Of a stretch of DNA of 64,000 nt, positions 16,986 through 61,647 are shown one piece after another; position 1 is the stretch's first letter, and each line of letters begins with the position of its first letter. The position numbers were made by a program, and so were the translations under genes. The notes under the pieces were generated by a model that was not told the DNA's origin, searched no databases, and saw only the letters and a program-made list of their open reading frames with translations. The stretch comes from a virus, in the IMG/VR virus record IMGVR_UViG_3300045988_155520, positions 224,001 to 288,000 of that record; one strand, 5' to 3'.

Positions 16986-17610
16986 TTACAAATGGTCAAA
17001 TCTTAAATGCAGACCTTTTGTTCGTTTCTCTGGTTCATGGTTATCCATATATTTAGAAAAATCTCTATGAACTTTACTTAACACATCTACTGTAGGGTGG
17101 TCAGGATTCGCTCTATTAACTCTTAATAAAATTGGATTATTATTACTATCAAAATAACAAGCAATCTCTCCTACGAAATCTCTCACATCGCTATCCTTTC
17201 TTTTTAGACCTGTTAATGTAAATTTGGTCACTAATCTACCGTCTTCTATCAAATCAAGAGAATCTGGCGTAATTGTTAAATTACATAAAAATAATGAAAT
17301 TTCATTATAAGTTAATCCTCGAATGCTTTCAATATTTTTAGAGTTATAGAATCCTTCACCTCTTATTGTTTCGTCATTAGACATGTCTTGTACAGTTGTC
17401 TTCACAGGTATATCTTCATTAGTAATATAGTTTCCATTTGAACCATTAATTAAAGAAGATTCAGAATAAGTATAGAACTTAAAATTTATATAGAATAGCT
17501 TATCTACTCCCCCCATTTTCTTTAACAAGTGCGACACGTAGTTGATTTAAATTCGTTTCTTTATCCTTGTTAAATTCTGTCATTGAATTAAAGATATTAA
17601 TGTATTTCAT
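16986..17610 (-). CDS. hypothetical protein, reading frame split at a G6 run
   Basis: ATG 17610 opens MKYINIFNSMTEFNKDKETNLNQLRVALVKENGGSR-stop (TAA right after the run). The 183-aa track ORF (16986-17537) continues in the +1 frame from the same G6 (C6 on plus, 17509-17514). Losing one G gives ...VKENGGVDKLFYINFKF... C-terminal GLKRKDSDVRDFVGEIACYFD is paralogous to 17647-17937. Confidence 0.55.
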
Positions 17611-17649: not shown

Positions 17650-17937
17650 GAACTTTGATACTGATTTATATAATTTAGTTCTGTAATCAGGCAGATATGT
17701 ATCATTATATTTGGAAAATGAATCTATTTCTACCCTCCCCCCTTGTGCCTTTTTAAGAACAAATGGTTGTTTATTTTTATCGCAATAACAAGCAATTTGA
17801 CCTATATAATCTCTTTGACCATTATCTTTTCTTTTTAGACCGTCAAATGAAAAGATTGTTGTTAATTTTTCTTCTTGATTATATTGAAGAACAAATATAT
17901 TTCCATTAGCATCAACAAATGTTGTTATTTGTTCCAC
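17647..17937 (-). CDS. hypothetical protein, possibly 5'-truncated paralog of 16986-17610
   Basis: 96 aa from a GTG start. The frame is open upstream to TAA near 17994 and encodes a further motif copy (VVFNFDGLRSKEDKSIRDC) without any ATG. Contains FSFDGLKRKDNGQRDYIGQIACYCD and an in-frame G6 (17737-17742). Confidence 0.5.
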   Translation of the reverse strand: MEQITTFVDANGNIFVLQYNQEEKLTTIFSFDGLKRKDNGQRDYIGQIACYCDKNKQPFVLKKAQGGRVEIDSFSKYNDTYLPDYRTKLYKSVSKF

Positions 17938-21626: not shown

Positions 21627-21815
21627 GAATAACATGTTTCGTGAATACGCCGATAGTTGTTCGTTAACAAATCCTAACAATAGTGTCAGCCTTGTTACTA
21701 ATCATCCACAGGTATCTCAACCTGCAGCGGAGCTATCTCTCATCGCCCGTATTAAGATGTTACGGGCACCATTAAGGTCTCTATGGACCTTAATTCCATC
21801 ATACATAAACCACTC
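21627..21815 (-). ncRNA. omega-RNA-like 3' tail of tnpB (scaffold 21650 to about 21815, candidate guide 21627-21649)
   Basis: Block duplicated at 1843 to about 2010. Hairpins GCCCGTA (21745-21751) / TACGGGC (21761-21767) and CAGG (21709-21712) / CCTG (21721-24). Conservation ends abruptly at 21650. Confidence 0.5.
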
Positions 21816-23066
21816 TTTTCCACCCAAGTTAGTCATTAACTCACCAGTAAAGCTATTGGTCTTGCTTGTGTATGACTCATTTTGTTCTACATACGCCACA
21901 CCGCACTCCTTGCACTTTTGCTTCAATCTCTCCTTAAACTCAAAGAATCGAAGGGATAGCATAGAGCGTACAATACTCTTACGTAGCTTCCTACCTTTCT
22001 TCGTCATTCCTTTTACCTCGAAAGGAGGGAATACTACGACAGAAAAATTGTGCACAAGGTAGTTTATACACTGCCAGTGCAATTCATCAACCAAGTCTTG
22101 TATTCTGTGGTACGTCCTATTAAGCGTGCGCTTCAGTTTACCTTTCTTCTTCTTATCCTTTGTTAATGCCAACCTGCTTAGCAGGTGGTCACGCTTAAGG
22201 TTAAGTGTTAGTATTCTGTCAAAGGCGTGTACACCAAGCCATCCAAATCGTCCATCTTCACTGAAGTAGGTAAGGAAATTCCTAACCCCAGGGTCTAAGG
22301 CAACAATACCACCTTGGCTTTCGGTCGGCATGGTTGTTATCTTCTGAGGTACGGAAAGATACCATCTTCCGTGGTCATAAATGAGACGACAATCACAGAT
22401 GTCATTTTTAAAAAACTCTCTTTCAGAGAACTTGAGTTTACCACTGATAGTGCGGTAAATTCCACTTGTTGACACAGCGGATTTAGGAATGTAACAACTC
22501 TGAACAGGGTTTTTACGAGTCTTATAATGCAACTTAAATGGTTTACCAGACTTCTTTGTTTTATTGCAGTTTGTCCACCATGAAGTGTAAGCGTCCTTTA
22601 CTGCAATCTTCTTTATCTGATATGGCACAGATTTAATATAGCTTTCAGTAAATTCAGCTAAGATTGTAGTACTCATTTTCATCCACCCTTTAATTTCAAT
22701 TTCTTTGCCGTTAAAGTGTTTAATGCAAGTATTGTACACCTTTCTTTCAACGCCAAACCACTGCTTAAAGAGTTGCTTTTGCTGTTGTGATGGATAAATC
22801 CTTATCCGTCTTGCCTTCGTCACTATAGTTCCTGGGTCTATGCATTCTTTATGTAAATGTATAAAGAGTTGCAAATAAGTATTCTGTGGGTTATTATTCT
22901 TAGATGTGACTTGTTTTGTAGAAAACCATGGTTTAACATTCATTGCACAGGAAGTGTTATCACATTCTGACATAGCACATTCTATGTCTTTGTGTGACAA
23001 CAAGTGTGAACTAATGCTTTTACATAAATCATCATAAAAAGTCTTATGGTCTTCCTGTACAGTCAT
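21650..23066 (-). mobile_element. TnpB-only IS200/IS605-superfamily-like element; left-end boundary unresolved
   Basis: tnpB without a tnpA. The right-end position is inferred from the homology break with the orphan copy. No terminal structures identified upstream of 23066. Confidence 0.35.
21717..23066 (-). CDS. tnpB: TnpB-family RuvC nuclease lacking the zinc ribbon
   Basis: 449 aa. Motifs: RIRIYPSQQQKQLFKQWFGVERKVYN, GIVALDPGVRNF (RuvC-I D), VVFPPFEVKGM (RuvC-II E), NESYTSKT, VHRDLNGARNILIRA (RuvC-III D). No Cys between YTSKT and HRD. The first about 95 residues are an extension carrying 5 Cys and 5 His within the first 75 residues. Confidence 0.85.
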   Translation of the reverse strand: MTVQEDHKTFYDDLCKSISSHLLSHKDIECAMSECDNTSCAMNVKPWFSTKQVTSKNNNPQNTYLQLFIHLHKECIDPGTIVTKARRIRIYPSQQQKQLFKQWFGVERKVYNTCIKHFNGKEIEIKGWMKMSTTILAEFTESYIKSVPYQIKKIAVKDAYTSWWTNCNKTKKSGKPFKLHYKTRKNPVQSCYIPKSAVSTSGIYRTISGKLKFSEREFFKNDICDCRLIYDHGRWYLSVPQKITTMPTESQGGIVALDPGVRNFLTYFSEDGRFGWLGVHAFDRILTLNLKRDHLLSRLALTKDKKKKGKLKRTLNRTYHRIQDLVDELHWQCINYLVHNFSVVVFPPFEVKGMTKKGRKLRKSIVRSMLSLRFFEFKERLKQKCKECGVAYVEQNESYTSKTNSFTGELMTNLGGKEWFMYDGIKVHRDLNGARNILIRAMRDSSAAG

Positions 23067-23323: not shown

Positions 23324-24991
23324 CTATCCAAATATTTCTCTAATATCCATTGGTGTAATGGTTGTAAATTCATTGAGTTTCTCGAAGTCCTTTAATGAAA
23401 CATTAGAGAAAAACCCTTTATTTTGTTTGAGAGCTATACCATGTGTTTTACACATAATCAAGTATACACATTCTTCAGGAACATCTTTCGATGGTGTAAC
23501 ATAGAAAGTCTCTTCTATTGGAAGCTGAGTTAGTAGCCCAAATTTTTCAGAAATAACAAACATTCCATCTTCATCTTGAATTAAGTATAAGGTTTGTTCA
23601 CCTTCTCCTATCTTGCTAATGATGTCTGCCCAATATATATAAATTTCACATGTATCTGTATTTATTACAGAAATTTGATTATCTTTAAAACAAACCAACC
23701 TACCATATTGGTATACACATTTATCCACAGACTCATCAAACATGACCTTATTAGTTTTTTTATCTATTACTTGTTTATCTCCATCATCATCAGTCAGTAT
23801 AAGAATATTTTGATAGTTATCTAATTCCCTAATAGAAATCTCTTTTAACTTTTCCAAGGTCTTTGCGTTATAAATTCCGCCACCATCTTCTTCTTCATCA
23901 GTATTGGCGACAAATAAAAGACCATTATTTTCAATTGTGTCTATCCATTCATCACCGAAAGCTGCCTCGTGAATTAAACCATTCCTATCAATTAGAGCAC
24001 AAATTTCATATCCTTCATCAGTTTCACCTTGATAGACAACATAGTTTTTACTGTTGAAACAAACATTATCGTTAAAGTTGTAACCATAAATGTACAAATT
24101 GCCAGTTGTTTTATTCTGACACAATTTAAAACCATAATTCAAATTATCATCCAAAACTTCCACACCTTCAGGAATTAAACTCTGAATATCATCTGGATTA
24201 AATATACTATATATATCAGTTCCAATTAATTTAGAAAGTTGTTCTGGAGTCATTACAGAGTCGTTACCTCCGTTGTCATGATTCCATCTACAGGTTACTG
24301 TATTTACAGAACCATCATGTCTAAAAGATAGGGCAATCATCGAAAGTCCATATTCATCCAATGGACAATTTGGGCCTACCTTTCTTGGAACATTTTCAAA
24401 ACCTTCTTTTAATAAGAAATAAAACAAACCCTTACCTATACCGACATAATTAATGAAATCCTGTGAACGGTGAGTTACACACCATGTGGTGTAATCGCTA
24501 TATTCAGATGCCTCTGAAAACGATGGGATTGGAACAATTGTATAGCCATTATTATGTCCATTACTCTGTCCATAATGTGCGGTATTTTCTCTATTAGCCT
24601 TATCCGCTTGATGAACATAGCCTTCAAAATTTCTAAAAAACTCATCCAATGGCATACCATTAAGATTCTGGTCAAGATTTAGTTCCTTAGATTTGGCTGC
24701 TGCAACACTAATAAATTTGTTAAGTTTTAATAATGTGTCAGCATTTATTGATTTAGGATTCTGTAATAAAAATCTTACAACCGCTGGAAACAAATGAAAG
24801 TTTTCTTTACGTACACTTGGTATGTCATGCAATACTTTCTCTGTAAACTCTTTATCATTTGTATTTGGGGATAGTTCTCTAACCATTTTTCTTGCAAGGG
24901 ATTGGTTCTTTGAAGCACGGTTCTCAGTAATTAAACGACTTCTTTTAAATAAACTTGCGAACTGGTTTTTGTCTATAATAATTCTTCTCAT
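23324..24991 (-). CDS. hypothetical protein (shares a domain with 25564-26577)
   Basis: 555 aa. Shared block GPNCPLDEYGLSMIALSFRHDGSVNTVTCRWNHDNGGNDSVMTPEQLSKLIGTDIYS. The C-terminal half is repeat-rich. Confidence 0.85.
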   Translation of the reverse strand: MRRIIIDKNQFASLFKRSRLITENRASKNQSLARKMVRELSPNTNDKEFTEKVLHDIPSVRKENFHLFPAVVRFLLQNPKSINADTLLKLNKFISVAAAKSKELNLDQNLNGMPLDEFFRNFEGYVHQADKANRENTAHYGQSNGHNNGYTIVPIPSFSEASEYSDYTTWCVTHRSQDFINYVGIGKGLFYFLLKEGFENVPRKVGPNCPLDEYGLSMIALSFRHDGSVNTVTCRWNHDNGGNDSVMTPEQLSKLIGTDIYSIFNPDDIQSLIPEGVEVLDDNLNYGFKLCQNKTTGNLYIYGYNFNDNVCFNSKNYVVYQGETDEGYEICALIDRNGLIHEAAFGDEWIDTIENNGLLFVANTDEEEDGGGIYNAKTLEKLKEISIRELDNYQNILILTDDDGDKQVIDKKTNKVMFDESVDKCVYQYGRLVCFKDNQISVINTDTCEIYIYWADIISKIGEGEQTLYLIQDEDGMFVISEKFGLLTQLPIEETFYVTPSKDVPEECVYLIMCKTHGIALKQNKGFFSNVSLKDFEKLNEFTTITPMDIREIFG

Positions 24992-25489: not shown

Positions 25490-25512
25490 AACATATATTT
25501 TTTAATACTCTG

Positions 25513-25544
25513 CAAAGATATAGAAAAAATATAATATCTCAAAA
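25513..25544 (-). promoter_or_regulatory. Bacteroidota-type promoter
   Basis: -7 TATCTTTG (25513-25520), -33 TTTG (25540-25543), 19-nt spacer. Confidence 0.7.
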
Positions 25545-25563
25545 TTTCAATATATAAAATATG

Positions 25564-26577
25564 TTAAAAATCTATTATTGATTCATGACCTAATTCTTTT
25601 CCTGTTTTCGCATCAAATTTAACTATGACTCTTCCAAGTTCGATATAAAGAACGTTATCTTTAATATAAGCATTTCGTATAGTTCTTGATTGAGAAACAA
25701 AGGATAAACCATTTATAGTTGCACATACATCGTAAGAATTATCAGTATGTAAAACTATAACATCTTTACCTGCGAAGTATTTTTTAACCGAATTACTTTT
25801 ATCTGTTACCAAATAATCATTTGCTTGCTTATCATAGACCAATTTAAAACCGTCTTTTAAGTTCTTTACCAACTTCAAACTATCTGTATGTTGTTCGTTA
25901 TCTCTTAAATCGTGTTTAATCTCTCTGGTTAAGTCTATTACTACATCTCTACCAAAATCAAATTGTTTATTCAATACTATTGCATCACGTCCATGAAAAT
26001 ATTCTACATCTTCTAAGAATTTATCAGTTACCAAATAATCATTCTTAGATTTATCATAGAATAGCATTAATCTATCTGCTATTTTCTTAATATATCTCCA
26101 ATCTTTAGGATAAGAAATATTGTTATACACGGTGTTTTTTGTTACAGAGTATATATCAGTACCTATAAGGTGAGAAAGCTGCTTAGAAGACATTATATTG
26201 TCATTTCCGTCATTCTTATGACCCCACCTGCTTGTAACACTATTAATTTCACCATCTTTTCTAAATGACACTGCTATCATTGATAAACCGTATTCATCCA
26301 ATGGTGCGTTATCTCCCTCCTCTTCTGGTATTGAAGCAAATTCTTTCTTTAATATAAAATAGAAATAACCACCATTACGTATAAATTTCAGGAATGTATT
26401 TTTATCTTTGGTAAAGTTCCAATTTGCATAATTAGAATATGTATTTGCTTCCTCAAACGTTCTTATCAAAGCAAGCATGTGACCGTTAAATTCACCATAA
26501 GGACCTCTTTCTTCATTCATAATCTTCAGAACTATATTCTTAAATTGTTGCTCATTAATACGTACTAATCTTCTCAT
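25564..26577 (-). CDS. hypothetical protein (shares a domain with 23324-24991)
   Basis: 337 aa. Carries GDNAPLDEYGLSMIAVSFRKDGEINSVTSRWGHKNDGNDNIMSSKQLSHLIGTDIYS. Internal repeat of the form YDK..NDYLVTDK. Confidence 0.85.
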   Translation of the reverse strand: MRRLVRINEQQFKNIVLKIMNEERGPYGEFNGHMLALIRTFEEANTYSNYANWNFTKDKNTFLKFIRNGGYFYFILKKEFASIPEEEGDNAPLDEYGLSMIAVSFRKDGEINSVTSRWGHKNDGNDNIMSSKQLSHLIGTDIYSVTKNTVYNNISYPKDWRYIKKIADRLMLFYDKSKNDYLVTDKFLEDVEYFHGRDAIVLNKQFDFGRDVVIDLTREIKHDLRDNEQHTDSLKLVKNLKDGFKLVYDKQANDYLVTDKSNSVKKYFAGKDVIVLHTDNSYDVCATINGLSFVSQSRTIRNAYIKDNVLYIELGRVIVKFDAKTGKELGHESIIDF

Positions 26578-26706
26578 TAATTTATCTTTTATTTATAAAT
26601 ACCATAATTAACACAAAAGATAATATAGATAAAAATATAACAAATAAATATATATTATATAATCAAAGTATTATTTATTATAATAATAACAAATATTTTT
26701 TAATCT

Positions 26707-27485
26707 ATGAGTACATATTTAAAAATCTTTGATGATAACGACCAAAGACTGAATTATGAGTTTGGAGACACTTATGTAAAACCTTATGTGTCAGTAATAA
26801 ATGAAGAAAATGGGGGGGGGTAGTAGACCCTCACTACAATGTACCAGATGATATTTTGAGTATCGTTACAAAGTTTGATAAATCTATTGCATATCTAACA
26901 GGTGAAGGAGAAATAACTAAACAAAAATTACCTGATGCACCTATAATAAAAGCTATATTAACTAATAGATGTACTGGTATAGGTCCGTCAGCATTTAAAC
27001 ATAATATCTTACAGAAAATTACTATTTCCAATACGGTAACTTCAATAGGTAGTAATGCTTTTGAAGATTGCTACGGATTAGAAAATATTTCATTACCACA
27101 ATCATTAAAAACGATAGGAGATAAAGCTTTTAGTGGCTGTTGGGCAACAAATCTTGCAATACCAGATGGTGCTAAAACCATTGGGAATGATGCTATAAAT
27201 AACTGTCCAAAATTGGAGACCTTAGTATTACCAGCATCATTAGAAAATATAGGAAATAACTTAAACTTTGAAAACTGTCGGAAGCTATCTCAAATTGTTT
27301 TATATGGAAGTGTTTCCAGATTAAATGACGACTTTAAAGAATTTTTGAGCAGTAATAATGAGTTTAAAAATCAAAATAGAACATATGGAAGTCTAAGCAT
27401 AACTGTAGAAGCATCTATTGCAGCAGAATATGAAGACTTTAAAAATAGGATAAATGGTAATTTCAACATTAATATAATGTATTAA
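26707..27485 (+). CDS. BspA-type leucine-rich repeat protein, frame split at a G9 run
   Basis: LRR units such as IGSNAFEDCYGLENISLPQSLKTIGDKAFSGC...IPDGAKTIGNDAINNCPKLETLVLPASLENIG. The LRR frame has no ATG (track start is TTG 26856). An ATG frame from 26707 ends at TAG 26821-26823, right after G9 (26812-26820). It is the only plus-strand gene inside the minus block and has its own terminator. Confidence 0.65.
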
Positions 27486-27494
27486 AACAAAAAT

Positions 27495-27531
27495 ACGAGC
27501 TGTGAAACAAAATCATTAGCTCGTCTTTTTG
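27495..27531. terminator. bidirectional hairpin terminator
   Basis: Stem ACGAGCT (27495-27501) / AGCTCGT (27518-27524) with T-runs on both strands. It sits between convergent genes. Confidence 0.7.
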
Positions 27532-27536
27532 TTAGT

Positions 27537-27866
27537 CTACAAATTATCTTTTCTACCATTATTCGGGTTATGAACGTCGTTCTTTGTTACAGAACAACCA
27601 TTAGATTGAGTTGGTTCACCAGGAGTAAATCTACCTCCTGTTATTGAACCACCACAAAACATATCACACATTTCTATATATTCATCTACAGTCATCAACG
27701 AATCAGGGTCAATAAACTTTTCCAGTTTTTCAAGACGTTCATTGATTTTTCTTAATTCATTGATTTTTGCATCGTAATCAAAACTATCATTAGATTTCAT
27801 AGCTTCGTCCATACAATAAGTTGTCTGTGAAACTTTTTTTTCTATTTTAACCATAATATTTAACAC
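27537..27866 (-). CDS. hypothetical protein (paralog of 25103-25489)
   Basis: 109 aa. Overlaps the 3' end of the Panacea-like gene by 20 nt. Confidence 0.75.
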   Translation of the reverse strand: MLNIMVKIEKKVSQTTYCMDEAMKSNDSFDYDAKINELRKINERLEKLEKFIDPDSLMTVDEYIEMCDMFCGGSITGGRFTPGEPTQSNGCSVTKNDVHNPNNGRKDNL

Positions 27867-28368
27867 TATTTCTTATCATTTTTGTTGGAATTATTATATT
27901 AAAATTACCATTTGTTAAAGCAACGTCATAACAAATTTTCCAACAAGACCATTTCTGAACAATATCTACCAATTTAGTAGGTTGATAATATAGGATGTTT
28001 GGATTTTTTTCAAGTAATAAATTTATTGCTTCATCGACCACTTGTTTACTATCATTATCTAAATCAATACTAACACTATCGTTCTTTATGTTACAGGAGG
28101 AATTGGTAATAGAGTATTTTGATAAGATATCTGCTGCAATAAATTCACAAACATCTTCTTCTACTGGACCAAATGGTTTTGCTACAAACTTATTGAAAAT
28201 TTCTGTTAGTTGTTTATTCTCATCTGTTGAAAACAAACCAACAGTTAAAAACAATAATCTAATTAACTTAGGTGCAGTAAATGTATCTGTTTTATTATTG
28301 TTTTTACGTATTAATGCATCTACAAAATATTCAAAAAATAAACTTTTAGCTTTCATACTCTTATTCAT
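27847..28368 (-). CDS. Panacea/DUF4065-like (SocA-type antitoxin-like) protein
   Basis: 173 aa. FTAPKLIRLLFLTVGLF...FVAKPFGPVEEDVCEF resembles the DUF4065 pattern (T.LKLQKLLY...AW.YGPV...Y). This is from memory, not a search. Confidence 0.45.
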   Translation of the reverse strand: MNKSMKAKSLFFEYFVDALIRKNNNKTDTFTAPKLIRLLFLTVGLFSTDENKQLTEIFNKFVAKPFGPVEEDVCEFIAADILSKYSITNSSCNIKNDSVSIDLDNDSKQVVDEAINLLLEKNPNILYYQPTKLVDIVQKWSCWKICYDVALTNGNFNIIIPTKMIRNSVKYYG

Positions 28369-28960
28369 TTTTATGCATATTCAGATGATAATTTTCTTTT
28401 AATTCTTCATATCTGTCAAGAATGAGTTTCTTATCATCTTCAGTAAGTTTTTCAGCTTCTTCTTTTGTTTGAAAGTAGTTTCCTGCGAGCCATGCCAAAC
28501 TATTACTATGGATTATATCTTCAATAGATTCTTTTACTGTATTTTCTTCCAAATTATAATAGAAGAATCGTTCATTGTCATTTGCATCAAATTGATATCG
28601 TTTTAGATAACTATTCCAAGATACGTTCTTAAATTTTCTACATATGTTTTGTAAGTAGACGTAATGGTCAAAATATCCCTTTTCCCACTTATATTCTTCA
28701 GTATTATCAATTTCTACTGTGGTATCGAATTTAATTCCTTCTGAAGGTGAAAAATAACAAAAAACTTTAGCTTTAGTTTCTGTAATATACTCATTAAATA
28801 ATGCATAAATAGTTTCGTCTCTATTTTGCATTCTCATAATATCTTCTTTTTCAAACTTAGGATATTCAATCTGTTCGAAAGAGACTACACCATCTTCAAT
28901 AACTGGTTTGTAACCATCTGGAATATCTATGCGGTCACATTCGTCAAAAATAATTTTCAT
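28361..28960 (-). CDS. hypothetical protein (DIPDGY-type N-terminus family)
   Basis: 199 aa. The N-terminus IDIPDGYKPVIEDGVVSFEQ parallels 33086-33655 and 36167-36469. The C-terminal YFQTKEEAEKL resembles YFRTKDLAELY. Confidence 0.8.
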   Translation of the reverse strand: MKIIFDECDRIDIPDGYKPVIEDGVVSFEQIEYPKFEKEDIMRMQNRDETIYALFNEYITETKAKVFCYFSPSEGIKFDTTVEIDNTEEYKWEKGYFDHYVYLQNICRKFKNVSWNSYLKRYQFDANDNERFFYYNLEENTVKESIEDIIHSNSLAWLAGNYFQTKEEAEKLTEDDKKLILDRYEELKENYHLNMHKNE

Positions 28961-29905: not shown

Positions 29906-30154
29906 TCACCAAGAAATACGGAGATATACACTTCCGTTAAAACCTTGACTTTCTTCAGCTACAGAAAAACCACTTTTCACCAACTCAGAACATATATAAT
30001 CATTCCATAAATCTCTATCATAAATATACGTTTCCCGTACACCCAAAAGAGCGTCGTGTTTTAATATATCGTTAAGTTTTTCAATTCTCTTAATATTGCC
30101 TTCAGTATCTTTTGAAAATTCAATTAATTCATTTGGAGATATAAAATTTACCAT
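29906..30154 (-). CDS. hypothetical protein (tandem paralog)
   Basis: 82 aa. Close to 30195-30443: P.ELI..S......IEK.ND.L......RE..IY...LWND...SEL...GF...EE. Confidence 0.8.
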   Translation of the reverse strand: MVNFISPNELIEFSKDTEGNIKRIEKLNDILKHDALLGVRETYIYDRDLWNDYICSELVKSGFSVAEESQGFNGSVYLRISW

Positions 30155-30194: not shown

Positions 30195-30443
30195 TCACCA
30201 AGAAATATAAAGAGAAGGGTCTTCGAAAAATCCCTCTTTCTCTTCAGTAATTGTAAAACCATTTTGAGATAATTCAGAAAGAATTTCATCATTCCATAAC
30301 TCTTTCTCATAAATAAAAATTTCTCGTTTACCATCACTTGCAGCTTCTATTAACATATCGTTAATTTTCTCAATTTTTTCTGCATTATTTTTTCTATTTT
30401 CAGAAATCTTAATTAATTCATCTGGTGTTGAAAATTTTGTCAT
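30195..30443 (-). CDS. hypothetical protein (tandem paralog)
   Basis: 82 aa, a paralog of 29906-30154. Confidence 0.8.
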   Translation of the reverse strand: MTKFSTPDELIKISENRKNNAEKIEKINDMLIEAASDGKREIFIYEKELWNDEILSELSQNGFTITEEKEGFFEDPSLYISW

Positions 30444-33016: not shown

Positions 33017-33048
33017 CAAAGATACAAAAATAAAATCAATTAAACAAA
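33017..33048 (-). promoter_or_regulatory. Bacteroidota-type promoter
   Basis: -7 TATCTTTG (33017-33024), -33 TTTG (33045-33048), 20-nt spacer. Confidence 0.7.
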
Positions 33049-34305: not shown

Positions 34306-35832
34306 TTATTTAAAAAACTTAGCGAACTCTTCTCCACCGTACTCATCAGCAGTTAATTTTATAATCTCTCTAATGGTGTACTTTTCCTTATGAGGAGTCA
34401 GCAATCTATTCTCAATAAAGTCTCTTGTACCAGTTGAACATGCGCCAGTAATAGACCTATATGCAACGATTGCTTCCTCAAAAGACAACGTATCATCCAG
34501 TGACAAATTCTTATAATCTGATGTATCTCTATCATTTATCTTATATATAAGGTCAGATTTAGCTTCTGCAAGAGTTGCCCCATGTGACCAATGACCTTCA
34601 CCATCAGTGATAAGATAAAGTGGATTATTTTCTTGCCCAAGTTTATGTACTTTATATACATTACCATGGTGAGAATCAATTACTGAGAAAATACCGTCAG
34701 CATTAATATACCTCACGCCATCTTTCTCCCATAAAGGAACCATATTTTTAATATCATGTATTTTCTTTTCCTGTTCTGGAGAAAGGACTCTATTAACTTG
34801 TGAAACATCTACAATTTCTGGATTATCTATTAAAACACAATCTACAACTGTTAAGTTATCTGGTAGTTCTATTATATCTGAACGATTTAGTTCAAGATAA
34901 TCACCGACAGTTAAGTTGTTAGGTAATTTTTTAATACGACTATTAACCAAAATAAGGCTATCAGTAACAGTTAAATTATCAGGTAGATGCAAATCATTCG
35001 TATGACATAGGTCTATGTCACCATTAACTTTCAAATTATCAGGAAGCGTTGTAATAGGAGTCTCACGAAGCGTAATAGAACCATTAACAACTAAGTTATC
35101 AGGAAGTTCTGTAATATTAGTATAACTTAGGTCCATACCTTCTCCAACTATTATGTTATTAGGTAACTTGGCTATATTTGTGTGATATGCACTGAGATAA
35201 CTACCAACTATCAAATTATCAGGAAGTTTTGTGATATCTGTATTACTTATATTAAGATATCCTCCGACTGTTAAGTTTTTTGGTAATTCTTTAATAGCAC
35301 TATAACTTAAACCAAGGTCTCCAAAAACGGTCAGGTTTTCTGGTAAACTGTTAATATCCGTATATTCCAAGTGAATACTTCTACCAACTGTTAGGTTATC
35401 AGGTAGTTTTGTGATATTACTGTAATCCAAACATAGAGAACCATTAACTATTAAGTTATTAGGTAACTCTGCTATAAACGTATTAATCAAAAATAAATCT
35501 CCGCCAACTTTTAAATTTTCTGGCAATTTTGTGACACCAGTACGGCATAATGATAAAAATCCACCAACTGTTAAATTATTTGGTAATTCTATAATATATG
35601 AATCAGTTAAGTCAAGAAAACCATTAACGGTTAAATTGTCTGGTAACTGACTAATATACTTATTACCAACCAAATCAAGATTTCCGTCATAATAAAACTT
35701 TCCCTCCTTAACTGAAAGTTCACACCAAGTTTCTTTATAGAATTTATCTATTATTTCTTTTTCTCTTTTAGTCATACGTTTTTTCTTTAAAAAATTCGCA
35801 TTTGGTATAAGGGCATTCTTTGAATTGTTCAT
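34306..35832 (-). CDS. LPxNLTV leucine-rich-repeat protein with conserved C-terminal domain
   Basis: 508 aa. About 13 tandem 23-aa units (LPDNLTVGGYLNISNTDITK...). C-terminal about 160 aa (WEKDGVRYINADGIFSVIDSHHGNVYKVHK...GEEFAKFFK) shared with 46974-48443. The true start may be MTKREKEIIDKF at 35775. Confidence 0.85.
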   Translation of the reverse strand: MNNSKNALIPNANFLKKKRMTKREKEIIDKFYKETWCELSVKEGKFYYDGNLDLVGNKYISQLPDNLTVNGFLDLTDSYIIELPNNLTVGGFLSLCRTGVTKLPENLKVGGDLFLINTFIAELPNNLIVNGSLCLDYSNITKLPDNLTVGRSIHLEYTDINSLPENLTVFGDLGLSYSAIKELPKNLTVGGYLNISNTDITKLPDNLIVGSYLSAYHTNIAKLPNNIIVGEGMDLSYTNITELPDNLVVNGSITLRETPITTLPDNLKVNGDIDLCHTNDLHLPDNLTVTDSLILVNSRIKKLPNNLTVGDYLELNRSDIIELPDNLTVVDCVLIDNPEIVDVSQVNRVLSPEQEKKIHDIKNMVPLWEKDGVRYINADGIFSVIDSHHGNVYKVHKLGQENNPLYLITDGEGHWSHGATLAEAKSDLIYKINDRDTSDYKNLSLDDTLSFEEAIVAYRSITGACSTGTRDFIENRLLTPHKEKYTIREIIKLTADEYGGEEFAKFFK

Positions 35833-35909: not shown

Positions 35910-36469
35910 TCACGCTCCGATTTCATAATGATAATTTTCAAGTGCTTCTTTAATTCTATTTCTCGCTTCTGTGGCTTGTTCATGAGTGCGAAATTGATTA
36001 AAGAAATTGTATCTTTCATTACTCGTGAACAATAAATCTTCTCTATTTTTTTCACTACCAATCATACCAGTAGCTGTAATAAAATAGTAAAATTCGTTTA
36101 CCATTGGTCTCCACCTTGTTTCTTCCACTTTCTTCTCCTCTGCATTCCATTTATATCCTTGCTTTTTCATCTTGTCAAAGAGTAATTGCTTTTCTTCTTC
36201 GGTAGCGTAGGATAAACTACTACCGCTCCACCTATTGCTTGGAGAGTCGCTGACAGAAATCTGATTGTATAATAGTATGAGTGGAACCCCCCTTTATCCG
36301 TACTTTTGTAAATAAAAGCATTATACCTTTTCCCATTTCCAACAGATACGAGAATGTCCCCGTCCTTAAACTCTTGACCTTTCTCAAAAACCACACTCCC
36401 GTCCTTAACGATTGCCTTGCAACCCTCAGGAATAGTGATAGAATCACCACATTTATATATTACTTCCAT
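35910..36469 (-). pseudogene. DIPDGY / W..AT.EE family gene split into two ORFs (36167-36469 and 35910-36170)
   Basis: The upstream ORF gives the family N-terminus SITIPEGCKAIVKDGSVVFEK...FIYKSTDKGG. The -1 frame opens exactly at G6 (36287-36292) and gives ...NRWSGSSLSYATEEEKQLLFDKMKKQGYKWN..., the family C-terminus. The intact paralog 33086-33655 has both in one frame. Confidence 0.6.
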
Positions 36470-46973: not shown

Positions 46974-48443
46974 TTATTTCTTTTTATTCTTCTTAAAGAA
47001 CTTTGCAAACTTCTCCCCACCATACTCACCAGTAGTTAAATCTATAATCTCCCTAATGGTGTACTTGTCTTTATGGGGGTCTGGTAGTCGGCTCTCAATG
47101 AAGTATCTTGTACCGACTGAACATGCACCAGTAATAATACGATATGCAGCGATAGCTTCTTCATAAGATAAAGTATCGTCCAATGACAATTTTTCATAAT
47201 CCGAGGTGTCCCTATTGCTTAACTTATATATAAGGTCGGCTTTAGCTTCTGCAAGAGTCTTACCATGCGCCCAATTGTTATCGCCATCTGTGACAAGGTA
47301 AAAAGGTTTATCTTCTTCTCCAATTTTATGTACTTTGTATACATTGCCATGGTGAGAATCAATAACTGAGAAAATTCCATCAGCTTTAATATATCTCACA
47401 CCATTTCTCTCCCAGAAAAGAGCCATATTTTCTAAATCATGAATCTTTTTCTGCTGTTCTCGAGAAAGAGTCGTATTTACTTCTACGTTATCTGTAATAC
47501 TTGTATCTCTTATATCAATAACTCCATCAACTGTAAGGCTATCTGGTAATGAGGTGATACCCGTACCTCTTAGGTCAAGAGAGTCACCCACTGTAAGATT
47601 GTCAGGTAGAGACTTAATGGGTGTATTGCTTAAGTCAAGATATCCACCAACCGTTAGATTATTAGGTAAAGATACAATATTTGTATCACTTAAATCAATT
47701 TCCCCTCCAACTATTAAGTTGTCTGGTATCTCTGTAATAAGTGATTTAGATAAATTAAGCCATGACCTAACGGTTAAGTTGTTAGGAATCTTTTTAAGTT
47801 TAGTATTCATTAAACTAAGATAACCATTAACAGACAAATTATCTGGAAGAGTTTCAATAGGGGTGTTGTTTAAATGCAGATTTCCGTTAACTATTAAAGA
47901 ATTATGTAGCTCTGTGATATCTGTATTTTGCAAATATAGACTATTACCCACCTTTAAGTTATCAGGTAACTTTTTTATAGGTGTACAACTTAAAACAAGA
48001 CTTTTACCAACTATTAAGTTGTCAGGAAGTTCCCTGATAGATGAGTCAGTTAGAATTAAATCTTTATCAACTGTCAAGTTATATGGTAATTTCGTAATCT
48101 TTGTCCCCACCAAACTTAAATTTCCTCTTACATTTAAATTATCAGGGAGTTTCGTGATAAGTGTGTAGTCCAAAATTATACTATCTCCTACTTTTAAACT
48201 ATCTGGAATCTCGGTGATTTGTGTAAATAATAAAAAGAGAGTTTCTGAAACGGTTAAATTATTTGGTAACTTGTCGATATTTGTTTCAGATAAATTAAGA
48301 GAACCATTCACAGTAAGGTTATCAGGTAACTCTGTAATACTTGTGTTCATTAAGTTAAGATAACCGTCATAAAATAACTTCCCATCCTTAATGGTCAGTT
48401 TATAACCTGTTTCTTCCTTGAACTTTTCTATTATTTCATTCAT
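46974..48443 (-). CDS. LPxNLTV leucine-rich-repeat protein with conserved C-terminal domain
   Basis: 489 aa with about 13 repeats. The C-terminal domain matches 34306-35832 at both protein and nucleotide level. Confidence 0.9.
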   Translation of the reverse strand: MNEIIEKFKEETGYKLTIKDGKLFYDGYLNLMNTSITELPDNLTVNGSLNLSETNIDKLPNNLTVSETLFLLFTQITEIPDSLKVGDSIILDYTLITKLPDNLNVRGNLSLVGTKITKLPYNLTVDKDLILTDSSIRELPDNLIVGKSLVLSCTPIKKLPDNLKVGNSLYLQNTDITELHNSLIVNGNLHLNNTPIETLPDNLSVNGYLSLMNTKLKKIPNNLTVRSWLNLSKSLITEIPDNLIVGGEIDLSDTNIVSLPNNLTVGGYLDLSNTPIKSLPDNLTVGDSLDLRGTGITSLPDSLTVDGVIDIRDTSITDNVEVNTTLSREQQKKIHDLENMALFWERNGVRYIKADGIFSVIDSHHGNVYKVHKIGEEDKPFYLVTDGDNNWAHGKTLAEAKADLIYKLSNRDTSDYEKLSLDDTLSYEEAIAAYRIITGACSVGTRYFIESRLPDPHKDKYTIREIIDLTTGEYGGEKFAKFFKKNKKK

Positions 48444-55859: not shown

Positions 55860-57479
55860 TCATACACTTCCAATACATTCACGACCTACCTTTGGTAGGC
55901 TTCTTCGAAACGATAACAATACTTCTTTCACTTTCTCACGTCTAAGTAACCTTGGCTCAAAAGCACCATTATCAAGCTGTTTTAAGAGTTTATCTCGTAA
56001 CACGGTTACAAGAACTCTATTTTTTATATTTTTTGCAGCATTAAAGTCTGCATTATCTTTATGCCCACATTCAACACATTCAAATGTTTCTTGATTTGGT
56101 CTATTACCATCTTCAATGCAGCCACATACAGGACACATCTTTGATGTATAACTTGCTTGAACAGTTGAAACTGCGATGTCATACTTCCTTGCAATATGTT
56201 CCACCTCTTGTTTCAAACTACTTAAACCAAGAAAGCTAACCTTTCGGTTGTAATTTATATCTTTATTGTCACCATCTTTGACGTAACACTTTCCAAATCC
56301 ATTATTAAGATTTTCCATTACAATGTGACCAGTTCCTTTAATTTTTTCATTCTTACACATAGTAGCTATGGTTTGCTGTTCATTCTTAATAATTTTCTCC
56401 TTTAACTTGTTAAGTTTACGTTGTTTGCGTTTGCCTACCTTATATTCTTTATTTTTCCCTTTAAATCTATCAATCTCAAGAGATAACTTGCAAAAATCAT
56501 TAACTAATTTTCTATCATAGTCATAAGTGGTTTCATCTGATAAGCAGAACAAATTGTGTTTGCAATTAACATCTATGCCAATAGTCTGTCCATTTGGTTC
56601 TGGGATATACCTTTCACCATCTTTACATATGTTTACATTCACTTGATGCTTCTTTTCATCGAATGTAAGAGTATATACATAATCAGGAGTGTTCTTTCTA
56701 TAATCCTTCATACTTCCGTGCCATCCTTTATTAAAGGTAACTGGTATGTCAAATGATTTCCTACTGAGCCCACTAAGACTTATGAATGAATTGATAACTG
56801 ACCCAAACCTGCGATTATAATCAATTATCTTTTTCTTTCTACATCTACCACGAAAGGTTAATGACCTGAACTCTATAGGATTGTTGGCATATTTGTCAAT
56901 AATACGTTTTCTCTTTGATAATGCAAGTGCATATAACCTTTCAAAACCGAATTTATCACAACATCTTATTATATTGTTATAGAAGTCACGTTTATTAGCA
57001 TCACATTTGTCAACGTTAGATTTGATATAAGCAATAGTACCTTCATTTCCATACCTTGCAAGGTAAGTAAGACAATTGGATAAAGATGTGTGTTTCTTAT
57101 CAACAATTACTTTTTTCAAGTCACCCTTTTTATTATTCTTTGTATCACGTTTATAACATTCAAAACCTTTGAATACAGATATTTCAAAGACAAGCTTACG
57201 TTGTATTGCATCAAATTTATTCTGATAACAAGTAAATACTTGTGTATAAATTTGCGTATCAAAGGAACTTGGTACCGAACCTTTGAATTTTGTTCTCATT
57301 TCTTTTGCAAATTGGAACTTTGTATAATCAAGATAGTGCAATAAGTTTTCATTTACATGTTGTGATACTATGTTTTTATGTTTTTGAATAAGTACAGCAA
57401 AGTTATGTAACTCGTCATATTTCTGACGAGTTAAATCCTTTGAATGGAATACCTTTGTGTACTTACTCTGTATAATCAT
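55860..57479 (-). CDS. tnpB: TnpB/Cas12-like RuvC nuclease with intact zinc ribbon
   Basis: 539 aa. TIGIDVNCKHNLF (RuvC-I D), GHIVMENLNNGFGK (RuvC-II E), SYTSKMCPVCGC...FECVECGHKDNADFNAAKNIKNR (CxxC..CxxC plus RuvC-III D). Confidence 0.85.
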   Translation of the reverse strand: MIIQSKYTKVFHSKDLTRQKYDELHNFAVLIQKHKNIVSQHVNENLLHYLDYTKFQFAKEMRTKFKGSVPSSFDTQIYTQVFTCYQNKFDAIQRKLVFEISVFKGFECYKRDTKNNKKGDLKKVIVDKKHTSLSNCLTYLARYGNEGTIAYIKSNVDKCDANKRDFYNNIIRCCDKFGFERLYALALSKRKRIIDKYANNPIEFRSLTFRGRCRKKKIIDYNRRFGSVINSFISLSGLSRKSFDIPVTFNKGWHGSMKDYRKNTPDYVYTLTFDEKKHQVNVNICKDGERYIPEPNGQTIGIDVNCKHNLFCLSDETTYDYDRKLVNDFCKLSLEIDRFKGKNKEYKVGKRKQRKLNKLKEKIIKNEQQTIATMCKNEKIKGTGHIVMENLNNGFGKCYVKDGDNKDINYNRKVSFLGLSSLKQEVEHIARKYDIAVSTVQASYTSKMCPVCGCIEDGNRPNQETFECVECGHKDNADFNAAKNIKNRVLVTVLRDKLLKQLDNGAFEPRLLRREKVKEVLLSFRRSLPKVGRECIGSV

Positions 57480-57703: not shown

Positions 57704-59851
57704 TTAATTTTTAAATTTATCATACAAATCAATGATACTCATTTCTCCATCGTCTTCTTCCTCAAGGAAATTAACGAAATTCTTTTCCATATCATTACGG
57801 CATATTTTTTCATTAAATAGAGTACCGTCACGCTTACACTTTCTGAATATCTGAGTAATACGTCTAAGGTTCTTTACCATAAGATAATAATTGAACTTTA
57901 CTTTAAATTTGAATCCAGTAGCATCTGTGACTACAACGCCTTCTACCGTATTATTAGTGCCTATATTAGTTCGTAAATAATCCCATAACTCATCATTAGT
58001 ATTAATAATAAATTCGTCTGGCATTCTAAAAGATGTATTTTCTCTTAAGAAATTCTTGAACTTATCTGACTCTTCGGTATATTTTTCACCAAGATTAAGC
58101 ACATTATGGATAATATCCAACAATACTACATCTTCCTTATCATATCTAATAATATGTGGGTCTTCTGTAGGACTAATCACTTCAAACACAGCCGAAGCAT
58201 TCTCTTTCTTAAGAATATTCTTCAACAGGTCTTTATCGTGCTTACTAACAGTTTCGTTAAAAATACGTTCAAAACGTTCAGCAAAAGGACCACTATCGGT
58301 TGTCTTAGATGCAAATACTAACTGATTGTCAACTACTGACATAATACCAAGATATCCATTCTCCTTTATCGTTACTTTTACAGGGAACTTAAGAGTTTCT
58401 TCAAGTTTCTTTCTCTTAGTTGACTTATGTTCGTCAATATTAAAGAACTTGTCATAAGAACGCATCTTTACTTCTCCTGTATTCTTATCAACGAATAAAC
58501 CACGTGCCTTGATAGTAGCAAAGTTCCATTTCTTTCCAATAAATGCATTACGATTAAAGTTGATAGAGTACATATTATGCTTACAACCCTTTACATTAAC
58601 AAGACGACTGTTCATTATCTTCTTAACTTCTGGGTCATCAACCTTATATACTACTTGCTGAAAAGCGTTCATATTCTCAATACTAAACACTTTATTCTCG
58701 TAATTTAATATAGCAGCATATTCTGGAGTTATAGAGAAAACTTTTAAGTTTCCACCAAACTCAACACTATCTTCAAGACAAATGGAATGGTCTGTAGACA
58801 GAGTGTTACGATGACCATGTATCTGTATAAAGTCCTGACACTTTCCAAGTAGATAATTATCTTCATAAATTTTATCTACTTCCATATCATATCCGCCAAC
58901 ACCCTTAATCATATCGTTTGTTGGAATCGTAGTAAGGTTTGGAACAGATGTAAGACCGCCATGTGTTATCAAGTATTTCTGACCGCAGTATGTGAAAGCA
59001 AAGCACTGACGCATACGATAGTAAATCTTCTTTAACTCCTTGCGGACCTGTTCTAAAGGATAAACCTTGGTTATCTCATCAAGTGTCATCTTGAAGTATT
59101 CTGAAGTTATCTCCTCACCGTTAATCAAACGCCAGATATGCTTCTCGTGATTTCCTTCAAGAAGGACCACGTTGTCATCATTATAATGTGACAATAGGAA
59201 CTCATACACTTCTTTATTTTCGATACCACGGTCGAAATAATCACCAACGAATACATATAACACGTCTGGGTTTAAAGAGCCACCAATGGCTTCTAAAAGG
59301 CATGTATGACAACCATGTACATCACCAATAATCTTTACTTCTTTATATTCGGAAGCATCGGTAATGTAATAATTGAGAATATCTTCTACATTAGTAATTT
59401 CCTTAAAACGATTGGATAATTTATTTTCTTGAAGTATACTGTATGCACGACGAATATCAGCATCTGGAACACGTCTAACTGTGTCACGTAGTAAATTACG
59501 TTCCAAACATTCTTCCAAGGTTGCTTCAACGTTATGCTGATAACAATTATAACGATACTTGTCAGCTAATTCTACATACTTAGATACAGCCTTGGATGTC
59601 TTATGAGTAGCATCAATCACTGTGAAATCACCATTACGCATACGATTCTCAAGCATAGTATGTAATGTGTCCCATACCATTTTATCGGAACGTGCGCTAA
59701 TAGTCATGTCTCCTTCCTCATTCATCTTTGGAGAATGAAACATTAAACGTATATCATCGGCTGATAATGTATAATTAGTAAGACCATTTTCCTTAATGAA
59801 AGTAGACTTACCACTGCCCATACAACCTCTTAGAATTAGTAAAGTACGCAT
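57704..59851 (-). CDS. polynucleotide kinase - metallophosphatase - RNA ligase-like fusion (Pnkp-like RNA repair enzyme)
   Basis: 715 aa. Walker A LILRGCMGSGKSTF. Calcineurin-type motifs IGDVHGC, GDYFDRG, LEGNHE, ITHGG, IHGHRN. C-terminal nucleotidyltransferase-like TIKENGYLG (KxxG), EGVVV, KFKVKFNYY. Confidence 0.7.
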   Translation of the reverse strand: MRTLLILRGCMGSGKSTFIKENGLTNYTLSADDIRLMFHSPKMNEEGDMTISARSDKMVWDTLHTMLENRMRNGDFTVIDATHKTSKAVSKYVELADKYRYNCYQHNVEATLEECLERNLLRDTVRRVPDADIRRAYSILQENKLSNRFKEITNVEDILNYYITDASEYKEVKIIGDVHGCHTCLLEAIGGSLNPDVLYVFVGDYFDRGIENKEVYEFLLSHYNDDNVVLLEGNHEKHIWRLINGEEITSEYFKMTLDEITKVYPLEQVRKELKKIYYRMRQCFAFTYCGQKYLITHGGLTSVPNLTTIPTNDMIKGVGGYDMEVDKIYEDNYLLGKCQDFIQIHGHRNTLSTDHSICLEDSVEFGGNLKVFSITPEYAAILNYENKVFSIENMNAFQQVVYKVDDPEVKKIMNSRLVNVKGCKHNMYSINFNRNAFIGKKWNFATIKARGLFVDKNTGEVKMRSYDKFFNIDEHKSTKRKKLEETLKFPVKVTIKENGYLGIMSVVDNQLVFASKTTDSGPFAERFERIFNETVSKHDKDLLKNILKKENASAVFEVISPTEDPHIIRYDKEDVVLLDIIHNVLNLGEKYTEESDKFKNFLRENTSFRMPDEFIINTNDELWDYLRTNIGTNNTVEGVVVTDATGFKFKVKFNYYLMVKNLRRITQIFRKCKRDGTLFNEKICRNDMEKNFVNFLEEEDDGEMSIIDLYDKFKN

Positions 59852-60515: not shown

Positions 60516-60866
60516 TTATCTGATTAATATCTCGGTTTCACTATTTATCACTGGTCTATCAAAAAGATGCTCGGTGAACCATGATTCATAATATTCATCT
60601 ATATTACAATTTGGATTATTAAATTTCCAAGGAATTTTTTCTTCGTCTTCTTTGACACATTCATATTCTAACGTTTCAAAGTAATTGTTTCCTTGCCACA
60701 TAACTCTTTTCCCTTTTGGAAACCATGGTACAATATAGACAAAATGTTCTATTTCATCTTGGTCAAAAGGTTTTCTTCTTTCATCGAAAAGAGTAACTGT
60801 TATGTCTAAATTTAACAAACGTATTGAAAAATCTCTATTTATGGTTAAATCAACATTACTTTTCAT
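60516..60866 (-). CDS. hypothetical protein
   Basis: 116-aa ORF. Confidence 0.8.
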   Translation of the reverse strand: MKSNVDLTINRDFSIRLLNLDITVTLFDERRKPFDQDEIEHFVYIVPWFPKGKRVMWQGNNYFETLEYECVKEDEEKIPWKFNNPNCNIDEYYESWFTEHLFDRPVINSETEILIR

Positions 60867-61647
60867 TTTTACTGAAAATGGATTTTATACGGCCAAAGAA
60901 ACCTTTATTCTTTTTAAAATATTCATTTGATGATAAATCTCGATTGCTACTTAATGTAAAATGATTATTATTACGATGAATGTCATCAGGTGTATTGCTC
61001 TTGTTAGTTTCAGTATATTGTCTAAGAGTATTAATCAATTCATCTGTTGTAGCAGGCATTGTGATAGTTATTGCTGGGTCTTGATGCTTCTCAGCTTTAT
61101 ATTCGGCAACCAACTTGTCTAATGTAAGGTCACAAAATTCATCCTCCCAATCACCTAAATAATAGAATCTATCAGACACAACTTTTCTGTCGGTAAAAAC
61201 ACCAAAGAGAATAGGGTCTTTATCTCTACGTTCTTGTTGTACTTTTCTTTCTGTTGTACCAGTATAATCAGTAAATACTACATAGAACTTATCAAAGATA
61301 TCTTTTGTTTTTGCTACAACTTCCACTATTTCATCTGGTATTTCACGGGTGTAACTTTCTAAATCTTGAATTTTAACAACATCTTTTGTTACATTATCAA
61401 TATAATCTTCGATAACACTACGATAAATAAATTTATCAACGCCAATTTCCAACAACTTTTCTTCCTTCTGCATTACTTCTGCAAGGAACTTAAGTTTTTC
61501 CAAAGATTTAATTTGACCTGTCTTTTTATACTTTTCACTTAAAAAACAGATATTATTAAAAGATTGTTTTAAATTCTCGTTACTAATACTTTCTACATTA
61601 CTTTTTAGCTGTAAAAAGTAATCATGAGGTGTCAATTCTTTTTCCAT
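60856..61647 (-). CDS. hypothetical protein
   Basis: 263-aa ORF with a -7 box at 61674-61681. Confidence 0.85.
   Translation of the reverse strand: MEKELTPHDYFLQLKSNVESISNENLKQSFNNICFLSEKYKKTGQIKSLEKLKFLAEVMQKEEKLLEIGVDKFIYRSVIEDYIDNVTKDVVKIQDLESYTREIPDEIVEVVAKTKDIFDKFYVVFTDYTGTTERKVQQERRDKDPILFGVFTDRKVVSDRFYYLGDWEDEFCDLTLDKLVAEYKAEKHQDPAITITMPATTDELINTLRQYTETNKSNTPDDIHRNNNHFTLSSNRDLSSNEYFKKNKGFFGRIKSIFSKNEK

Follow-up and report, generated by a model that had tools for sequence, protein, structure and literature searches.

A poly-G tract as a probable on/off switch of a BspA-type leucine-rich repeat gene in an oral phage

Is a gene that is split exactly at a long G homopolymer a decaying gene, a badly assembled gene, or an intact gene in its off state? 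The question is raised by a BspA-type leucine-rich repeat (LRR) gene in the IMG/VR virus record IMGVR_UViG_3300045988_155520, of which we analysed positions 224,001 to 288,000 (64,000 nucleotides, hereafter the window, numbered from its first letter). A first-pass annotation, made from the letters alone, had noticed that two overlapping plus-strand frames of this gene meet at a run of nine G residues (G9) and would be fused by one additional G or by a -1 slip on the run.

We consider it probable, at roughly three in four, that the LRR protein is switched on and off by a slipped-strand contingency locus, the G9 run, and that the window carries the off (or low-expression) allele. This reading is drawn from sequence comparison; the anatomy of the gene, the conservation of the tract, the variation of its length between strains and the preservation of the open reading frames (ORFs) are observed directly. 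The locus combines the features by which contingency loci are recognized, namely a homopolymer of at least about 7 within an ORF, length variation between matching flanks, and toggling of the frame with preservation of the ORF.

Anatomy of the split gene

The base-level description given in the first-pass annotation was verified throughout. The ATG at 26707 opens a 38-codon ORF that encodes MSTYLKIFDDNDQRLNYEFGDTYVKPYVSVINEENGGG and ends at TAG 26821-26823, directly after the G9 run. The LRR frame, which is preceded by TGA 26802-26804, is open from 26805 and has its first start codon at TTG 26856, from which 209 amino acids (aa) are encoded up to position 27485. One additional G (G10) does fuse the two frames, as had been proposed, into a protein of 259 aa, and G7 yields 258 aa; the junction reads ...EENGGGVVDPHYN.... 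When tract lengths were simulated in the standard context, a full ORF was obtained only at 4, 7, 10 and 13. The fused protein matches the Pfam family LRR_5 (PF13306) with E = 7e-29 and 100.7 bits (cut-off 27.7). A hidden Markov model (HMM) of the conserved N-terminal module (N-module; consensus M.xYLKxF...NYEFGxTYVxPYVSxIxEEN-GGG) matches the 5' part with E = 8.7e-23. The match covers positions 1-38 in the first frame and positions 37-53 in the second, and this division between the frames places the break exactly at the G tract.

The LRR protein was assigned to the BspA-type class on the basis of an LRR_5 match above the gathering score plus an LRR solenoid fold. In the AlphaFold model, the predicted local distance difference test (pLDDT) score exceeds 90 over the LRR core, and a Foldseek search with this model returned PcpA (4cp6), TpLRR (6mlx) and Bacteroides LRR proteins (E = 1e-6); 4fs7 is a further structure of the BspA/TpLRR type. 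The N-terminus MSTYLKIFDDNDQRLNYE is hydrophilic and, by inspection only, has no hydrophobic segment that could serve as a signal peptide or anchor. No function was obtained for the LRR protein from PHROGs, PADLOC or NCBIfam (no match above threshold), and the neighbours of the gene in the window are without structural annotation; in two relatives (L069 and L081), the LRR gene neighbours large same-strand proteins, one of them with a Fib_succ_major domain. Judging from the modelled fold, a role in host or surface binding would be our guess.

The LRR gene is the sole plus-strand gene between ~16.5 and 63.3 kb of the window, so that its description as a lone plus-strand gene in a minus-strand block is borne out. 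The AT-rich spacer upstream is presumed to be the promoter region for both the LRR gene and the divergent 337-aa gene; the plus strand of this spacer contains a single, weak sigma-70-like match (26608-26636), and such matches are not more frequent than in shuffled sequences. In the 3' spacer, we found a strong flanked hairpin (-21.1 kcal/mol, z = -6.7; 0 of 200 shuffles fold as well), which a simple consensus terminator scanner did not report, probably because the loop is long. This hairpin is probably a bidirectional intrinsic terminator, in agreement with the first-pass annotation. The moron-like look of the gene, also pointed out there, is supported by its opposite strand, its own spacer and hairpin, and its variable copy number of one or two across strains.

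Conservation and length variation of the tract

The window has a GC content of 30% and contains four G or C runs of at least 6, namely the G9 run and three C6 runs, so that G9 is the only one longer than 6; GGGGGGGGG occurs once in the window and in none of 100 dinucleotide-preserving shuffles. Of the four runs, three coincide with ORF breaks (26812, 17509-17514 and 36287-36292) and the run at 17737 does not lie at a break, an exact count that gives the same result as the earlier count by eye. In the long ORFs of the window, GGG accounts for 7.9% of glycine codons, which gives a probability of ~5e-4 for three in a row, and the only other Gly-Gly-Gly tripeptide in these ORFs is encoded as GGT GGC GGA. 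The one other glycine codon of the N-module is GGA or GGT across alleles, and the tract is pure G in every allele, including that of L069, in which the protein is 36% identical and the genomic neighbourhood is different. One allele of a tandem paralogue described below is tract-less, with the same loop encoded as AAG GGT AAC GGT CAG, the gene being unbroken at every locus with this allele. Taken together, these sequences indicate that the G tract is kept by selection at the DNA level.

Downstream of the tract, the LRR frame runs uninterrupted to its natural stop over 216-259 codons in 14 of 14 alleles, whether these are in or out of frame. Between the LRR alleles, dN reaches 0.17 and dS 0.27, with dN/dS of 0.6-2.3; the pattern, although it is based on small substitution counts, fits a fast-evolving binding protein and not a pseudogene.

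Using the hypothetical fusion as query, we identified a 259-aa protein (P0001) that is 98% identical to the fusion and covers 100% of it, along with homologues of 254-291 aa at 36-47% identity, all of which carry ...ENGGGV... at the same position. The contigs encoding P0001 (L001-3) have a G10 tract, with flanks identical to those of the window, and represent a different strain: L001 differs from the window at 6 of 1300 flanking positions and shows ~97% nucleotide identity over the neighbouring genes. Where coding homopolymers are concerned, G9 versus G10 is the sole indel that separates the window from L001; the remaining homopolymer differences concern A/T runs, apparently in spacers (only the one at 33046 was compared with the ORF list), and there is no sign of a platform-wide homopolymer error between the two.

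Identical 30-nt flanks enclose G9 in the window, G10 in L001 and G13 in L084, and a further comparison is provided by L004, with G11, while L049 and L071 have G10. After identical re-assemblies of a given sample had been merged, the census comprised 15 haplotype groups, 8 of them in frame and 7 out of frame (Table 1). Tracts of G9, G10, G11 and G13 were read in DNA; G7 and G8 are implied by protein calls. Two clusters of proteins at 90% identity contain in-frame forms with 'ENGGVV' (consistent with G7) and 'ENGGGGVV' (G13), out-of-frame forms with 'MGGVV' (consistent with G8) and 'MGGGVV' (G11), and restart calls of 205 aa and 209 aa that are consistent with a length of 3k. In P0135, which reads 'AIKWGGVV', a flanking deletion has probably restored the frame of a G9 allele, as judged from the protein only. 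For the window itself, two assemblers (megahit and Logan) of run ERR589708, which is labelled 'human oral metagenome' (PRJEB6997), both give G9, in sequence that matches the window at 100% identity over 6.6 kb. Other alleles are represented by runs ERR7437646 (G10), ERR8475876 (G11) and ERR7474956 (G13), and the GOLT18 samples SAMN03845377, SAMN03845380 and SAMN03845383 share identical alleles.

The N-module is rare. Among 1.84 billion protein representatives, 12 hits were obtained, 8 of which have the N-module at their N-terminus; the Gly run is at the same place in 8 of 8, and 3 of the 8 are stubs. Full-length homologues that begin with the N-module are P0001-4, P0006 and P0238-240. The combination of N-module and C-terminal tail is found in only ~8 clusters world-wide. 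A word-indexed search with the 71-aa N-terminus recovered one stub only, a megablast search of 25500-28500 against GenBank phages gave no match, and a protein-pattern scan of IMG/VR with P0001 gave nothing. The 15-mer GAAGAAAATGGGGGG was found at 57 loci in IMG/VR, of which only 2 are real relatives, and the 30-mer of the left flank had a single locus in JGI metagenomes and was absent from GTDB genomes.

Table 1. Coordinates of the features discussed, and tract lengths at the LRR locus in the window and its relatives
Feature	Position or loci	Strand	Content or state
AT-rich divergent intergenic spacer	26578..26706		Between LRR gene and minus-strand 337-aa gene (start 26577)
LRR gene, 5' part	26707..26823	+	38-codon ORF, conserved N-module
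G9 homopolymer (proposed switch)	26812..26820	+	Codons 36-38 of 259-codon gene
LRR frame (-1 relative to the stub)	26805..27485	+	N-module end VVDPHYNVPDDIL, BspA-type LRR_5 core, C-terminal tail
Hairpin	27486..27533		Core ACGAGCU...AGCUCGU, A-run before, U-run after; between convergent genes
Family-2 (non-LRR) gene broken at G6	16986..17610	-	C6 at 17509-17514 on + strand
Tract G9	window/L082-83, L074-76, L081		Out of frame
Tract G10	L001-3, L007-9, L049, L069, L070, L071, L072-73		In frame
Tract G10 plus extra A (L067:1830-1840)	L067-68		Out of frame
Tract G10, 1-nt deletion in preceding A-run (L077:4945-4965)	L077-80		Out of frame
Tract G11	L004-6, L059		Out of frame
Tract G13	L084		In frame

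Proposed mechanism and alternative explanations

We propose that slipped-strand mispairing during replication of the phage DNA would change the number of G residues. At lengths of 3k+1 (G7, G10, G13), the tract would be read as -N-G(2-4)-V- and the full protein of 258-260 aa would be made, with its conserved N-module of ~45 aa, BspA-type LRR binding core and conserved C-terminal tail. At other lengths, translation of the N-module would stop after 38-48 codons, and the LRR part would remain untranslated or give rise to an N-truncated product only. Switching is expected to be reversible, and a single phage population could contain a mixture of expression states. In the protein, the tract probably corresponds to a loop in which 2-4 glycines are tolerated, because in the structural model of a second poly-G family (family 2, see below; pLDDT 88) the Gly run is placed in a beta-hairpin loop (RVALV-KENGGGVD-KLFYI).

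Several points weigh against a contingency locus. The tract lengths were read from assembled consensus sequences and compared between strains, and the mixture of states in a population, the rate of switching and its reversibility are what we infer from this comparison. Because several loci (L001-3, L004-6 and others) re-assemble the same sample, the independent observations are fewer than the loci. The window's G9 rests on one sequencing run, ERR589708; Illumina chemistry is known to handle long G runs poorly, G homopolymers of 9-13 being error-prone, and single calls, the window's G9 included, may be off by one. Furthermore, a dN/dS of 0.6-2.3 does not by itself show purifying selection, the N-module is modelled with a pLDDT of only ~30, and the adaptive value of switching is conjecture.

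The sequencing-related points, together with a modal length that is the in-frame G10, could mean that the true tract is G10 everywhere and that the other lengths are homopolymer miscalls in short-read metagenome assemblies. We consider such an artefact improbable, given that the assemblers agree within each sample and that the deviations range from -3 to +3, with the in-frame lengths G7 and G13 among them. Out-of-frame tracts make up about half of the haplotype groups, far more than consensus errors would produce, and independent frame-affecting changes are present beside the tract (the extra A in L067, the A-run deletion in L077 and the probable compensating deletion in P0135). Moreover, there is no other coding-homopolymer frameshift between the window and L001, and the same pattern is seen at four other genes.

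The full protein might instead be produced from the G9 allele by programmed recoding, with ribosomes slipping by -1 on the G_GGG_GGG that precedes the TAG or RNA polymerase stuttering on the G run. Formally, the G GGG GGG directly before the stop codon qualifies as a slippery heptamer, as any long homopolymer trivially does; a -1 slip in the P site would yield exactly the G10 product, and long homopolymers can cause transcriptional slippage. What makes this explanation quite improbable is that the out-of-frame layout is not conserved, with 8 of the 15 groups in frame and the off alleles displaced both ways, and that no significant downstream RNA structure was found in the window, L004 or L069 (z = -0.86, -0.47, +0.33 and -0.61). 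Thus, the part of the first-pass annotation that invoked a change in length agrees with the G7-G13 tracts of the relatives, and the part that invoked a -1 slip is disfavoured, in the light of the missing downstream structure and the non-conserved arrangement. Some leaky expression from off alleles is likely or at least plausible, whether ribosomes slip by -1 on G9 or RNA polymerase stutters there. Recoding of the TAG as an escape from the stop was considered separately and rejected, as the 0 frame still hits a TGA a few codons later.

A dispensable moron could also have been inactivated by a frameshift in this particular strain and be on its way to being lost. The LRR gene is indeed accessory, with one or two copies per strain, lies on the opposite strand beside TnpB insertions, and has dN/dS near or above 1. 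A pseudogene is disfavoured because the LRR ORFs are preserved: no stop or second frameshift is present in the 216-259 codons of the LRR frame, despite dN of up to 0.17 and dS of up to 0.27. The breaks are all confined to the tract and the few bases beside it, and the tract is kept family-wide instead of being replaced by preferred glycine codons. We regard the decay of the gene as very improbable, and a slipped-strand contingency locus remains the reading that we prefer.

Before the tract stands the Asn codon AAT, the last two bases of which make up an ATG together with the first G of the run (26810-26812; the same context is found at 17515-17517 on the minus strand). At lengths of 3k+2, gene callers start an N-truncated ORF at this embedded ATG (MGGGVV..., MGGVDK...), the leader of which is A-rich and free of a Shine-Dalgarno motif, like those of the real starts in this genome. 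A rather unlikely but broader possibility is that the N-module and the 'AAAATG(n)' tract constitute a portable three-state switch cassette that is carried by several unrelated families of binding domains. Such a cassette would specify the full protein at n = 3k+1, an N-truncated protein that lacks the module, started at the embedded ATG, at n = 3k+2, and no product at n = 3k. If this were true and the module anchored the protein to, say, the virion or capsid, or targeted it there, the binding domain could be attached, free or absent, and five or more cassette loci would make the phage population combinatorial.

Other poly-G genes, the phage and its host

The tract is not confined to a single gene. 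Many relatives carry a second LRR gene (LRR-A) just upstream, with the same N-module and C-terminal tail. Its tract occurs in two allele contexts, as G6, G7 or G8 in the first and as G8 or G10 in the second; the G7 and G10 forms are intact (226-227 aa) and the other lengths are broken. In the 20-kb loci of relatives that were compared, which do not span the window sites 17509, 17737 and 36287, G or C runs of at least 6 occur only at the LRR genes.

In the window, a non-LRR gene of a second family (family 2) is broken at a G6 run into a 36-aa stub (17500-17610) and a 183-aa ORF (16986-17537); G5 or G8 at 17509-17514 would give 207-208 aa, compared with a family size of ~205 aa. Homologues of this family are either full-length ('VKENGGVDK', 'VKENGGGVDK') or truncated ('MGGVDK', 'MGGGVDK'), and relatives of the window gene in IMG/VR have G7, G9, G10, G11 or G13. 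In 12 IMG/VR contigs, three family-2 paralogues lie in tandem, each of which contains its own G7-G13 tract, located 23-44 codons into the gene, and the on and off states combine freely between contigs. Between L092 and L093/94, the flanks are identical and one family-2 tract differs as G11 versus G12. The N-modules of the LRR family and family 2 align in register, with an hhalign probability of 41%. Foldseek found nothing at E < 0.5 in the Protein Data Bank (PDB) with the family-2 model, and PHROGs, PADLOC and NCBIfam yielded no function for the family. With two tandem LRR paralogues and the three-gene family-2 array, at least five predicted poly-G genes are present in this lineage.

The C6 run at 36287-36292 is a G6 on the minus strand, where G7 would fuse the ORFs 36167-36469 (100 aa) and 35910-36170 (86 aa) into 186 aa; this may be either a third switch or an ordinary frameshift. 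Two other repeat proteins of the window are without a G tract: a 508-aa protein (34306-35832, minus strand) with ~14 tandem 'LPxNLxVxGxLxL' repeats, for which a match to the SlrP LRR effector was below threshold, and a 489-aa protein (46974-48443, minus strand) with a weak LRR_14 match.

Neither structural genes nor tRNAs were found in the 64-kb window. Its PHROG matches include an RNA ligase/polynucleotide kinase (PNK), TnpB-type transposases and phrog_24834, and the window also encodes two DNA methyltransferases and, beside the LRR locus, a gene with a crAss001_48 domain. The window has no close relative among GenBank phages. Relatives are present in IMG/VR, and contigs with these genes (P0122-P0135, P0149-P0226) cluster at 302-321 kb, which suggests that the source is an uncatalogued oral jumbo phage of ~310 kb. 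Circular jumbo phages of more than 300 kb have been reported from the tongue dorsum (bioRxiv 10.1101/2020.07.06.186817).

A Bacteroidota host is plausible, considering that Shine-Dalgarno motifs precede 2% of 88 genes (background, 3.7%), with A-rich leaders, and that the LRR gene has a crAss001_48 neighbour in the window and a Fib_succ_major neighbour in relatives. The RNA ligase/PNK best matches Fusobacterium phages (41% identity), and a Fusobacterium host was rejected because Shine-Dalgarno use is only 2%. A search of GTDB genomes with the TnpB gene, made to find the host, yielded no confirmed relative.

Further genes of the window were recorded in passing. The RNA ligase/PNK match is part of a 715-aa polynucleotide kinase-phosphatase-RNA ligase fusion (57704-59851, minus strand; Pnkp-like RNA repair). 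TnpB/IS605-type elements, with a Cas12f1-like TNB domain, are located on the minus strand at 21717-23066, 55860-57479 and 60856-61647; their presence and position vary by strain and include insertions beside the LRR locus (L004, L007 and L072). The 337-aa neighbour of the LRR gene (25564-26577, minus strand) and a 555-aa protein (23324-24991, minus strand) have a common conserved block (PLDEYGLSMIA.SFR.DG..N.VT.RW.H.N.GND..M...QLS.LIGTDIYS) and no Pfam, PHROG, PADLOC or NCBIfam match, and relatives contain three or four paralogues of this type in a row. Two adjacent 82-aa paralogues (29906-30154 and 30195-30443, both on the minus strand) share the pattern PDELI.FS…IEK.ND.L…E..LWND.I.SEL...GF and are present in one or two copies in relatives.

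Comparison with known homopolymer switches and significance

A parallel with Campylobacter phages had already been drawn in the first-pass annotation. Switching of poly-G genes in Fletchervirus, a group of such phages, was reportedly shown experimentally by Sorensen et al. in 2021. As in Fletchervirus, the G runs described here are phage-encoded and lie in coding regions (there ~7-11, here 7-13), the frame would determine the on or off state, several genes per genome are involved, and a mixed phage population is expected. The Fletchervirus proteins bind receptors; for the LRR protein, a binding function is plausible from the structural model, and switching is deduced from comparison. Unlike Fletchervirus, the present phage comes from the human mouth, has Bacteroidota-like translation signals and a genome of ~310 kb, and its targets are BspA-type LRR proteins and a family without structural match in the PDB. 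When 50,697 phage records were searched by tblastn with the LRR protein, the matches were generic LRR ones at less than 40% identity, with no Campylobacter phage and no N-module among them.

Poly-G phase variation of the Fletchervirus receptor-binding proteins, and poly-G tracts in BPP-1 and PB1-like phages, are described in a recent preprint (bioRxiv 10.1101/2025.10.21.683753). In this work, Gomez, Barrick & Waters (bioRxiv 2025.10.21.683753) describe homopolymer contingency loci of phages, with reversible frameshifts caused by polymerase slippage, and propose bet-hedging. Their loci are mostly repeats of at least 6 bases in T-even and other cultured phages, for which mutant frequencies were measured, whereas the tracts described here are longer (up to G13), consist of G runs in a genome with 30% GC, are deeply conserved and occupy the same structural position within families of modular paralogous genes; the case made here is comparative only.

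The locus also resembles phase variation at simple sequence repeats (SSRs) in bacteria, for instance at the poly-G genes of Campylobacter jejuni (PMC11868660, PMC4235727), in having a homopolymer in the 5' coding region with three-phase frame logic, a multi-locus 'phasome', and a tract that is kept despite codon bias. Unlike the bacterial surface proteins switched in this way, the locus is viral and the protein, by inspection, has neither signal peptide nor anchor. With BspA and TpLRR proteins, such as are encoded by many uncultured gut phages, the LRR protein shares the repeat family by sequence and fold; it differs from them in its size of 259 aa, the lack of a secretion signal, and the family-specific N-module and C-terminal tail.

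In the literature, we found no report of homopolymer phase variation in LRR genes, nor in phages of the mouth, of Bacteroidota or of jumbo size, and a late-2025 paper on gut phages cites only the Campylobacter case. Thus, poly-G phase variation in phages is known, and what is distinctive here is the length and conservation of the tract in an AT-rich genome, the involvement of multiple genes with tandem paralogues, and the evidence from natural populations.

To conclude, experimental proof of homopolymer phase variation in phages has so far come essentially from Campylobacter phages and the recent T-even preprint. The locus analysed here would extend the phenomenon to an uncultured human-mouth phage of ~310 kb, likely infecting Bacteroidota, in which natural on and off alleles are found at five or more genes. 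For annotation, this would mean that the split LRR and family-2 genes are phase-variable genes, as opposed to pseudogenes or assembly errors. The rare N-module and family 2, which is unmatched in the PDB, are candidate host-interaction proteins of this phage lineage.

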